A stretch of DNA of 64,000 nt, from positions 4,314 to 68,313 of the forward strand of contig CAZRRO010000012.1 of assembly GCA_964602595.1 (NCBI GenBank), written 5' to 3'. The notes under the pieces were generated by a model. That model saw nothing but the letters and a program-made list of their open reading frames with translations, was not told where the DNA came from and ran no database searches. The DNA is from an uncultured Verrucomicrobiota bacterium (GTDB lineage: Bacteria > Verrucomicrobiota > Verrucomicrobiia > Limisphaerales > UBA9464). The first letter of the stretch is position 1; every line of letters starts with the position of its first letter. Made by a program: the position numbers and the translations under genes. Positions 55,864-58,833 of this stretch are shown here, one piece after another.

Positions 55864-58833
55864 ATGTCGAAGGATTTCATCCGCCTCCGGGGCGCCCGGC
55901 AGCACAACCTCAAGAACCTCTCGGTGGCGATCCCGCGCGACCGGTTGGTCGTGCTCACCGGGCCCAGCGGATCGGGCAAGTCGTCGCTCGCCTTCGACAC
56001 CATCTTCGCCGAAGGCCAACGGAAATATGTCGAGTCGCTGAGCGCCTTCGCCCGGCAGTTCCTCGACCAATTGCCGAAGCCGGACCTCGACCACATCGAG
56101 GGACTTTCCCCGGCCATCGCCATCGAACAGCGCTCCAGCGGCGGCAACCCGCGCTCCACCATCGCGACCACGACCGAGATCTACGACTACCTGCGCCTGC
56201 TCTACGCCAACGTCGGCCAGGCGCATGATCCCGCCACCGGCACGCCGCTGAGCGCGCAGACGCCGAGCGAGATCGTGGACAAGGTGGCCGCCTTGCCGCC
56301 GAAGACGCGCGTGATGCTGCTCGCGCCGGTCGTGGACGAGCAGCGGGGGGAATTTCGCGATGTGCTGGAACGGCTCGCCCGCGAAGGGTTCGTCCGCGCC
56401 CGCGTGGACGGCCAGATCATCGAACTGATCGCCAACAAGCCCGTCCGCCTCGACGCCAAGGCGAAGCACACCATCGAGGTGGTGGTGGACCGCGTGGTCA
56501 TCGCCGACGGCGTCCGCACCCGGCTTTCCGACTCCATCGAGACCGCGTTGCGCTGGGGCGAGAGCCGGCTGCTGGTCCTGCACCAGCCGCCCGACAACCC
56601 GGACCCGACCCGCTGGCTGGAGACGCTGCATTCCACCCGCATGTATTCGCCCGCGACCGGTCGCAGTTTCGACACGCCCACGCCGCAGCACTTCTCGTTC
56701 AATTCGCCGAAGGGCGCCTGCACCGTCTGCCATGGGCTCGGTCAGAAACTGGTGTTCGATCCCACGCTCATCGTGCCGGACGAAACCAAGTCGCTCGAAG
56801 ACGGCGCGGTGAAGCCGTATCGCGGCCTGGGCGGGAAGAAGATGGTGGTTTACTACAAGGGACTACTTAAAGGCGTGGCGACGCACTATGGCGCGCCGCT
56901 GGATGCCCCGTGGAAAGACCTGAAGCCGGAGTTCAAGGAACGGCTGCTCAACGGCACCGGCGCGGACGAGATTGAGTTCTGGTTCATGCACGCGGGCGCA
57001 CCGCGCAAGACGAAGAAAGTCTTCGAGGGCGTGCTGCCGAACCTGCAACGCCTCTATGCCGAGAGCGAAAGCGAGTTCACCCGCAACCGGCTGAAGAACT
57101 ACATGACGCTCTCGCCGTGCGACGCCTGCGGCGGGCGGCGCCTAAAACCTGACGTGCTGGCCATTACCTTGCCGCGGAGTGGGGAGAGTAATCAGTGGTC
57201 AGTGGTCAGTAATCAGTCCGTGAGTGCCCCGGCTTCACTGAAGACTGACTCACTGATTACTGATCACTCCGCGGTCCCCGGCCTCAGCATCGCCGACTTC
57301 GGCCGGCTTTCGATCTCCGAGGCCGACGCCTTCCTCGCCGGGCTGCCGCTTACTGAGTTCCAGCGCAAGGTCGCCGGCGATGTCATCCGTGAGGTGCGCG
57401 CGCGGCTGGGATTTCTCCTCGAAGTTGGCCTCGGCTACCTGACCTTGGACCGGGAAAGCGGCACGTTGAGCGGCGGCGAGGCCCAGCGCATCCGCCTCGC
57501 GACGCAGATCGGCGCCGGCCTGATGGGCGTGCTTTACGTGTTGGACGAACCCAGCATCGGCCTGCACCAGCGCGACAACGACCGCTTGCTCGCCACGCTG
57601 AAACATCTGCGGGACCTCGGAAACACCGTGCTCGTGGTCGAGCACGACGAGGACACCATCCGCGCCGCCGACCATGTCGTGGACATGGGCCCCGGCGCGG
57701 GCATCAACGGCGGCGAGATCGTCGCCCAGGGCACCGTTGCGGAGATCCTCGCCCACCCGAAGTCCACGACCGGGCGTTACCTGCGGGGCGACCTGAAGAT
57801 TGAGGTGCCGCGGCAGCGAAATGCGCCGCGCGAGGACAAGGGCTGGATCGAGGTCGTTGGCGCGCGGGAAAACAACCTCCGGAACGTCCACGCCCGGTTT
57901 CCGCTGGGCCTCTTCACCTGCGTGACTGGCGTCAGCGGCAGCGGCAAATCCACGTTGGTCGATGACATCCTGCGCCGTGCGATCTTCCGCCAATGGTATG
58001 GCTCGAAGGAGAAACCTGGGCTCCATGACGAATTGCGCGGCTTGGAACTGTTCGAGAAATGCGTGGTCGTGGACCAGTCGCCCATTGGGCGGACGCCGCG
58101 AAGCAATCCGGCGACGTTCACCGGCATGTTCAACGAGATCCGCGACCTGTTCGCCTCGCTGCCCGCGGCCCGGGTGCGCGGCTACGAGACGGGCCGGTTC
58201 AGCTTCAACGTGAAGGGCGGCCGCTGCGAAAAGTGCGAGGGCGACGGCCTGCTGAAGATCGAGATGCATTTCCTGCCGCCGGTGTTCGTCACCTGCGAGG
58301 CGTGCGGTGGCAAACGCTACAACCGCGAGACGCTGGAGATCACCTACAAAGGCCTGAACATCGCCGACGTGCTGAACCTGACGGTGGACGAGGCGGTCCA
58401 CTTCTTCCGCGCCGTGCCCAAACTCCATGAGGTGACCCAGACGCTGGCCGAAGTCGGCCTCGGTTACATCCGGCTCGGACAGTCCGCCACGACACTTTCC
58501 GGCGGCGAAGCCCAGCGCCTGAAGCTGGCCGCCGAACTGAGCCGCCGGCAGACCGGCCGGACGCTTTACCTCCTCGACGAGCCGACGACCGGGCTGCACT
58601 TCGCCGACGTGGCGAAGTTGCTGGAAGTGCTCTTCCGCCTGCGGGCCAGCGGCAACACGCTCATCGTCATCGAGCACAATCTCGACGTGATCAAGACCGC
58701 CGACTGGGTGATCGACCTCGGTCCGGAAGGCGGTGGCCGCGGCGGACAAATCGTCGCCGAAGGCCCGCCGGAACGGATCGCGGCGACGCCGGCGAGCCAT
58801 ACGGGAAGCTATCTGGCGCGGATGCTGAAGTAG
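55864..58833 (+). CDS. uvrA: Excinuclease ABC subunit A, carrying a ~35-aa in-frame insertion
   Basis: Two ABC modules, Zn fingers ([23 protein letters not shown]), LSGGEAQR signatures; 989 aa. Insertion [36 protein letters not shown] lies between ...LAITL and GLSIADF. Confidence 0.9.
57172..57274. mobile_element. ~103-bp palindromic miniature element inserted in-frame within uvrA
   Basis: Terminal inverted repeats ccgcggagtg ... cactccgcgg. Internal AT-rich inverted repeats agtaatcagtg(gtcagtg)2...cactgattact. Locally ~48% GC against a ~65% background. Confidence 0.45.

Follow-up and report, generated by a model that had tools for sequence, protein, structure and literature searches.

Does the palindromic segment that is read in frame inside uvrA of an uncultured Verrucomicrobiota bacterium represent an inserted element and, if so, of what kind? 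The gene lies on a 64,000-nt stretch of DNA (GenBank assembly GCA_964602595.1, contig CAZRRO010000012.1, positions 4,314 to 68,313 of the forward strand; hereafter the window, whose coordinates are used throughout), for which an earlier reading made from the letters alone (the sequence-only reading) had proposed a miniature element like the Rickettsia palindromic elements (RPEs). The segment, 105 nt at 57172-57276 on the + strand, is best explained, with a probability of roughly 0.6, as a type A allele within a class of dispersed hairpin elements that are built from opposed TCAGT/ACTGA heptamer arrays and that recur at this slot of uvrA.

An in-frame insert in a conserved uvrA

The host gene (55864-58833, + strand) was recognized from the list of open reading frames (ORFs) and its translation. 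It encodes a 989-aa UvrA that matches solved UvrA chains over its full length (E = 0) and keeps the two Walker A motifs, the two LSGGEAQR signatures and every zinc cysteine, with the Pfam domains UvrA_inter at residues 132-240 and UvrA_DNA-bind (the insertion domain) at 299-411. When the protein was compared by phmmer with the solved chains, the match fell into two pieces (query 1-436 and 472-988): in G. stearothermophilus UvrA (2r6f), query residue 436 is aligned to residue 441 and query residue 472 to residue 442, with no residues between them, and 9gxk shows the identical break at 446|447. Residues 437-471, that is, 35 codons at nt 57172-57276, are therefore extra; they follow the codons for LAITL and precede those for PGLSI, and the reading frame is intact. 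The sequence-only reading was thus right that a palindromic in-frame element adds about 35 residues to a protein whose canonical form runs straight across the insertion point. Just one of the six frames of the insert is free of stops.

On composition and location the same reading went too far. The insert was held to be markedly AT-richer than its surroundings; it is AT-richer, but only moderately so (GC content of 0.56 versus 0.66 for uvrA). Nor is the site near the third zinc module: the adjoining CxxC (C419 and C422) is positioned downstream of the UvrA_DNA-bind domain and is zinc module 2 in the structural nomenclature of UvrA.

Anatomy and predicted fold

A perfect 10-nt inverted repeat marks the ends of the insert (CCGCGGAGTG at 57172-57181 and CACTCCGCGG at 57265-57274, both + strand), and an 11-nt inverted pair (AGTAATCAGTG / CACTGATTACT) was found inside it, both pairs as originally described. 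The arms of the palindrome are two opposed heptamer arrays, which were recognized with Tandem Repeats Finder (period of 7) and from the inverted-repeat pairs: (i) a left array of 4.4 units (AGTAATC / AGTGGTC, with a TCAGTnn core; 57187-57217, + strand); (ii) a right array of 4.7 units (TCACTGA type, with an nnACTGA core; 57235-57268, + strand), which is complementary to the left one. Together they make up a hairpin of ~40 bp. Between the arrays lies an apical spacer (CCGTGAGTGCCCCGGCT; 57218-57234, + strand) that is G+C-rich, partly self-paired in the predicted fold and alignable across the type A alleles.

The predicted RNA fold of the insert reaches −60.9 kcal/mol (−57 to −61 across runs), with a z score of about −6.8 against 200 dinucleotide shuffles, none of which folded as well. 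No other 110-nt segment of the 64 kb folds as strongly after correction for GC content. An Rfam scan of 56900-57600 returned solely sub-threshold look-alikes of plant and animal microRNAs, which were taken as generic hairpin matches.

Hairpin types at the same slot in uvrA orthologs

The insertion had been expected to be absent from close relatives, yet every ortholog examined has a segment between the same anchors. All of the 120 best homologs (77-100% identical; one of them named Verrucomicrobia bacterium) carry extra residues between LA(I/V)(T/S)L and PG(L/R)SI, and these are very diverse in length (10 to 43 residues) and in sequence. Judging by this tolerance of length, the site is probably surface-exposed; an AlphaFold2 model of the protein, built from a shallow alignment of 29 sequences, had a mean pLDDT of 44 and was unusable.

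The DNA of the slot was extracted from 11 orthologs (the window plus ten further), in which inserts of 30-129 nt are present between the same anchors, with the frame kept in every one. Six of the 11 form strong hairpins (z from −4.8 to −11), and in the other five the hairpin has decayed (z > −2). At least four mutually non-homologous hairpin types occupy the slot: (i) type A (window, L001, L006, L007 and L131), made of CAGT heptamers, 90-105 nt long and with fold z from −6.7 to −0.2; (ii) type B (L005 and L009), of the form (GAATGCG)n ... (CCGAACT)n, 90 nt long, with z of −5.0 and −0.6 and with arms that are each internally homogeneous yet mutually mismatched at three of seven positions; (iii) type C (L130), (GAAGTCG)4 plus its complement, 84 nt long and with z of −5.2; (iv) type D (L132), a nested GGCAGGCTGGAAGCCTGCC palindrome of 129 nt with z of −11 (−99 kcal/mol). 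The remaining two are not hairpins: a 42-nt heptamer remnant in L133, and a 30-nt, 10-residue loop without units in L134, which is also the state of the large 975-aa group. A shared segment at this position had been named as the mark of a lineage-specific loop, and one half of that description applies, since orthologs do carry a segment; but the segments are mutually non-homologous hairpins, so that a simple lineage-specific loop does not describe the slot either.

The five type A inserts are mutually alignable, with L007 lacking exactly 21 nt (three heptamers) and keeping its frame. Because type A is common to orthologs down to 79% amino-acid identity, it is old and, in this genome, a vertical inheritance from an ancestor of the clade rather than a recent insertion.

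Turnover and constraint

Outside the insert, the UvrA of the window (type A) and that of L005 (type B) share 98.6% amino-acid identity, and 19% of the four-fold sites differ between the two genes. In a second subclade, P0015 (type B), P0122 (type A) and P0121 (C-like) share 96.5-98.7% identity once the insert is set aside, with 98.7% between P0015 and P0122. Thus, the types alternate among near-identical genes in two separate subclades. Sliding identity of L005 against its type A and type B relatives revealed no long recombination tract around the insert. In the 5′ flank, no more than the final ~12 nt vary together with the type of insert (ATTACCTTG next to A, ATCACGCT(G/C) next to B), which hints at, but does not prove, a short-tract exchange of old alleles.

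The comparison of the window with L001, both of type A, indicates how the insert evolves when the type is kept. The two genes differ at 21.5% of four-fold sites and the proteins at 1.4% of residues outside the insert; within it, 14% of sites differ. The 33 codons compared there hold eight nonsynonymous and five synonymous changes, so the insert peptide evolves nearly free of constraint.

Related hairpins in other genes and genomes

A homolog of the type A hairpin was found in frame in an unrelated gene. On a verrucomicrobial contig (L181), it is positioned in the activation loop of a Ser/Thr kinase, an FHA-kinase-LRR protein (ORF 2812-5349, minus strand) whose homologs bear the names Chthoniobacter or Chthoniobacteraceae. 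Along 91 nt that take in the non-repetitive flanks of the spacer, the kinase element is 73-75% identical to the type A elements of uvrA, and the orthologous uvrA inserts are 76% (window and L006) or 70% (window and L131) identical. The kinase copy is thus as close to the uvrA copies as these are to one another, and so type A sequence is dispersed. Moreover, the activation loop is hypervariable across the kinase family (P0131-P0250), with 63-132 residues between HRD and APE, and paralogous kinases carry peptides of type A, type B and other heptamer hairpins at the same loop.

Several more conserved genes harbour such segments. A Gemmataceae kinase (L064) has an in-frame hairpin between HRDLKPANILM and KITDFG, after the catalytic loop and before the DFG motif. 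In an acidobacterial uvrA (Acidobacteria gp6; L042), an in-frame (TCAGTCG)4 array at 2920-2945 lies at the equivalent of a second UvrA slot, the turn after LVLHQ at residue 244 (~56593 in the window). At this second slot, a sister clade (P0020, P0024, P0025 and P0129) has ~30 extra residues with CAGT-type peptides (GNQSSVISNQS), and L131 has a decayed heptamer hairpin. An in-frame heptamer hairpin also stands beside the VDLYVGGTEHA motif of a LeuRS-like ORF (L176), which was identified by eye from conserved motifs. In clpB of L009 (6560-6670), ~24 extra in-frame residues (QAASLSGSAGSLPAENAGRAGSPANAAGRMPA) derive from a GGCAGGCTGCCAGCCTGTC...GGCAGGATGCCTGCC palindrome similar to the type D insert in uvrA of L132.

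Two wider scans were made. With the pattern (TCAGTnn)3TCAGT, at least 120 loci were found in a genome collection, distributed over Acidobacteriota, Planctomycetota, Cyanobacteria, Chloroflexota, Verrucomicrobiota and Bacteroidota and mostly intergenic among the matches listed. A metagenome scan with a 20-mer of the right arm yielded 61 matches on 59 contigs, among which there was no uvrA contig and hence no additional type A allele of uvrA for the covariation analysis; 15 of the 61 matches are hairpin-type, and eight are deep inside ORFs of at least 200 codons. At the protein level, a phmmer search of the insert peptide against 1.84 billion representatives returned one irrelevant repeat protein, and a 40-aa query with the insert peptide found no word-sharing candidates.

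The metagenome contigs, marine and other, also contain tandem arrays with units of ~58-80 nt (L138, L146, L153, L162, L163, L166, L171 and L173), each unit consisting of an ACTGAT heptamer run (..CACTGATTACTGATCACTCC) joined to a small GGCCGAAGGCC hairpin.

Evidence against a dispersed element

A number of observations weigh against the dispersed-element explanation, the first being the scarcity of copies nearby. No second hairpin was found in the window or in the 213 kb that comprise the window and the loci of its relatives. In the window, 18-mer and 24-mer cores of the insert matched nowhere else, even with 3 mismatches allowed; within ~150 kb of the window and relatives, strict heptamer arrays occur at uvrA only; and over the 213 kb, an nhmmer profile of type A recovered the uvrA sites and one weak match (38007-38070 in the window; E = 0.009). 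This match, when read in the sequence, contains a direct array with four heptamers of the ACTGA kind (TACTGAA TACTGAT CACTGAC GCACTGA; 38029-38058, + strand), which stops 5 nt short of the start codon (ATG at 38063) of a class I/II aminotransferase gene (assigned by Pfam) and thus belongs to its 5′-untranslated region. Within the window, ACTGANNACTGANNACTGA is found only in this array and in uvrA, and in-phase ACTGA triplets are confined to uvrA and 38032-38050; in either case the chance expectation is 0.00. The content of the window is therefore one heptamer hairpin plus one short direct array, and it is on the latter that multi-copy status in this genome rests.

Signs of transposition are likewise lacking. 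The flanks of the insert (..ACCTTG / element / TCCCCGG..) contain no direct repeat, so there is no target-site duplication, and none was seen at the kinase copy of L181. Nor was a transposase identified; the palindromes that flank the RAYT-like gene of the window belong to an unrelated family (see below). In addition, the slot shared by the orthologs is one defined by protein anchors rather than by exact insertion points within an ancestral loop. Finally, some of the resemblance between loci could be convergent, since heptamer arrays can grow locally by slippage, the process to which heptanucleotide repeats, reportedly the commonest long simple repeats in bacteria, are attributed by Mrazek (2007) as cited in PMC4679880.

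Alternative explanations

Local growth is also the core of the alternative that survives best, which we nonetheless regard as unlikely: a lineage-specific hypervariable loop in which nothing moves and in which arrays arise in place by slippage and intrastrand template switching (quasi-palindrome correction). Extra residues at the slot in every ortholog would be expected of such a loop, as would the lack of another hairpin copy in the 213 kb. The deletion of exactly three heptamers in L007 points to slippage, and the type B arms, homogeneous within and mismatched between, are as expected from separate homogenization; the slippage-attributed abundance of heptanucleotide repeats, in the citation just given, is in its favour too. 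Against local growth speak the kinase element, whose likeness to the uvrA element extends into the flanks of the spacer, and the recurrence of the same unit types in unrelated genes. Moreover, between the window and L005 type A has been wholly replaced by type B at 19% four-fold divergence, whereas at a comparable distance the type A alleles of the window and L001 have diverged at only 14% of sites, and no intermediates between the types were seen.

More doubtful is the possibility that the hairpin is a selected structural element, one that acts in uvrA mRNA (through stability, RNase processing or translational pausing between domains) or in DNA, with the peptide as a by-product. The rank of the fold as the strongest in 64 kb fits selection, and so does the persistence of strong hairpins in six orthologs despite the turnover of their sequences. 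Compensatory changes on both sides of the stem are seen: AGTAATCAGT / ACTGATTACT of the window corresponds to AGCAATCGGT / ACCGATTGCT in L007, and a G.T pair is replaced by T-A in L001. Across the five type A sequences, five pairs have changed on both sides, compared with 2.7 ± 1.2 in shuffles; however, this pair count is attained in 35 of 500 shuffles and the covariation score in 26 of 500, so that with five sequences the signal is weak, suggestive rather than significant. The hairpin has been lost (z > −2) in five orthologs and a 10-residue loop serves in the 975-aa group, so uvrA does not need the structure. The lack of a matching Rfam family and the occurrence of related hairpins in unrelated genes and in intergenic DNA also argue against a selected element.

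An assembly or sequencing artefact, namely a palindromic chimera in a metagenome-assembled genome, is effectively refuted: the window UvrA (P0001) is known from a single contig of 203 kb, but homologous type A inserts are present in independent JGI, ENA and NCBI assemblies (P0005 on at least 24 contigs), and the reading frame is kept in every insert.

A probable recurrent landing site

If the 105-nt segment does belong to a dispersed hairpin class, the uvrA loop is a hot spot, on which members of a dispersed repeat family have landed repeatedly. Such elements would spread as single-strand hairpins without target-site duplication, and their arrays would change in length through replication slippage. 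Only stop-free, in-frame copies would survive, which would explain both the single open frame among six and the same reading at other places (..SNQ.SV.. / ..LITDHS..). Resident hairpins would afterwards decay through point mutations and through deletions that keep the frame, such as the one of exactly 21 nt, and alleles may be swapped between lineages via short-tract homologous recombination.

A broader proposal is advanced only tentatively and is itself rather improbable: that Verrucomicrobiota, and probably Planctomycetota and Acidobacteriota, host an undescribed mobile heptamer-array hairpin that overwrites resident hairpins at fixed pads in essential genes, via a process that targets hairpins and leaves no duplication (an HUH-type enzyme, say, or the switching of templates at stalled forks) rather than classical transposition. 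If this were true, the landing pads (two UvrA turns, the kinase activation loop, ClpB and LeuRS) would be turned into hypervariable translated loops.

Loops that, like the one in UvrA, carry several unrelated hairpin alleles among near-identical orthologs offer a natural system for following how repeat DNA becomes new protein sequence and for finding the tolerant sites of essential enzymes. They also bear on the mechanism that moves or regenerates heptamer hairpins, which was left unexplained by MacGregor (2015). In practical terms, the inserts make the proteins of metagenome catalogues longer and more varied in length, and they can break assemblies.

Comparison with known repeat systems

Rickettsia is the best-known source of selfish palindromes that lie in frame; its RPEs are, in the summary that PMC10969869 gives of Ogata et al. 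(2000, 2002), palindromic, in frame and translated in housekeeping genes. The uvrA insert looks much like them: at 105 nt, it is a long-hairpin palindrome in the range of ~100-150 bp; it appears as an in-frame insertion in a housekeeping gene, absent from canonical homologs, with the ORF intact, and would be read as a tolerated extra peptide. For RPEs as for type A, members of the same family occur in unrelated genes. By description, they differ in three respects. The arms of the uvrA element are tandem heptamer arrays and those of RPEs unique sequence; its host belongs to the Verrucomicrobiota, with few copies in the DNA sampled; and several non-homologous hairpins occupy one slot among close relatives, a feature absent from the summary of RPEs in PMC10969869. 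What stands of the proposed analogy is an in-frame palindromic passenger with a nearly unconstrained peptide and a homologous kinase copy; what does not stand is that the insertion is private or recent. Its presence outside Rickettsiales is also less unusual than was supposed, since in-frame miniature elements outside Rickettsia are already on record (reviewed in PMC10969869). The distinctive feature here is that heptamer hairpins are read through in genes of free-living Verrucomicrobiota.

Among the MITEs (miniature transposable elements with inverted repeats) that occur within genes are ERIC, BOX, Correia and Anabaena MITEs (PMC10969869). The uvrA element is like them in being small and non-autonomous, in its hairpin fold, in its in-frame fusion with a host ORF and in its terminal inverted repeats (CCGCGGAGTG / CACTCCGCGG), of which the outer 4 bp may be target rather than element, because other copies end at GGAGTG...CACTCC. 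It differs in having no target-site duplication and in that its ends are poorly defined between copies. No partner insertion sequence or transposase with matching ends was found in the 64-kb window.

Heptamer repeats are also known in Cyanobacteria as STRR. The closest match in unit, however, is with the TAACTGA direct repeats that MacGregor (2015, PMC4679880) described in Beggiatoaceae, Cyanobacteria and Bacteroidetes, for which 169 direct sets and one indirect repeat were reported and no mechanism was given. These arrays are mostly located a few nt upstream of start codons and occasionally inside ORFs, in the stop-free orientation (with LSVISYQ-type peptides) (PMC4679880). The uvrA element has in common with them the ACTGA/TCAGT core, tandem units with a 7-nt period and a patchy phylogenetic distribution; furthermore, the array at 38029-38058 stands before an ATG just as in Beggiatoaceae. 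The uvrA element is not a direct intergenic array of exactly TAACTGA: it is an inverted pair of arrays that forms a hairpin inside conserved coding sequence, with TTACTGA, CCACTGA and TCACTGA as units, and the units at 38029-38058 are TACTGAA, TACTGAT and similar. CAGT-heptamer arrays were found here also in Verrucomicrobiota, Planctomycetota, Acidobacteriota and Chloroflexota, which are unlisted in the abstract of MacGregor (2015). A repeat class known mainly as intergenic TAACTGA-like arrays thus forms long hairpins inside conserved genes. In a limited literature search, no description was found of heptamer-array hairpins that alternate at a fixed slot in conserved genes.

The last comparison is with repetitive extragenic palindromes (REPs) and REPINs, which likewise form hairpins without target-site duplication, and a RAYT-like gene is present in both the window and L001. 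REPs are extragenic and 20-40 bp long, unlike the 105-nt intragenic element. The RAYT-like gene of the window (29862-30311, − strand; Y1_Tnp) is its only Y1 gene, is 45% identical to that of L001 and has GCCCCGGAGGGGCG-type palindromes on either side (29671-29753 and 30453-30523); the Y1_Tnp gene of L001 is 2.5 kb from uvrA and flanked by CCCAACGTAGCCGC hairpins. RAYT was considered as the evident mobilizer and was rejected, as both the GCCCCGGAGGGGCG-type palindromes and the CCCAACGTAGCCGC hairpins are unrelated to the heptamer hairpin. A third GCCCCGGAGGGGCG-type palindrome is located just 3′ of the uvrA stop codon (58946-59076); the gene and its palindromes form a classical RAYT-plus-REP arrangement.

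Other structured repeats

Further hairpins and inverted repeats were noted along the way. The second strongest local fold of the window comes from a hairpin in intergenic DNA (45559-45700) that contains GCAGGGA / GCTCCCT heptamers and is flanked by divergently transcribed genes for an FtsX-like permease and an OPT-like transporter. Hairpins of the form GTAGC(C/A)GCCGACGTGAGGAGGC... are found at 26017-26092 in the window and at 9238-9316 in L132; their GTAG-tagged, REP-like stem is common to the window and this distant relative, and the loop of the L132 copy contains AATTCCGCATTCCGCATTT heptamers. At 29602-29824 and 40848-40982 of the window lie long inverted repeats that are imperfect, their arms (57 nt and 51 nt) being 76-79% complementary.

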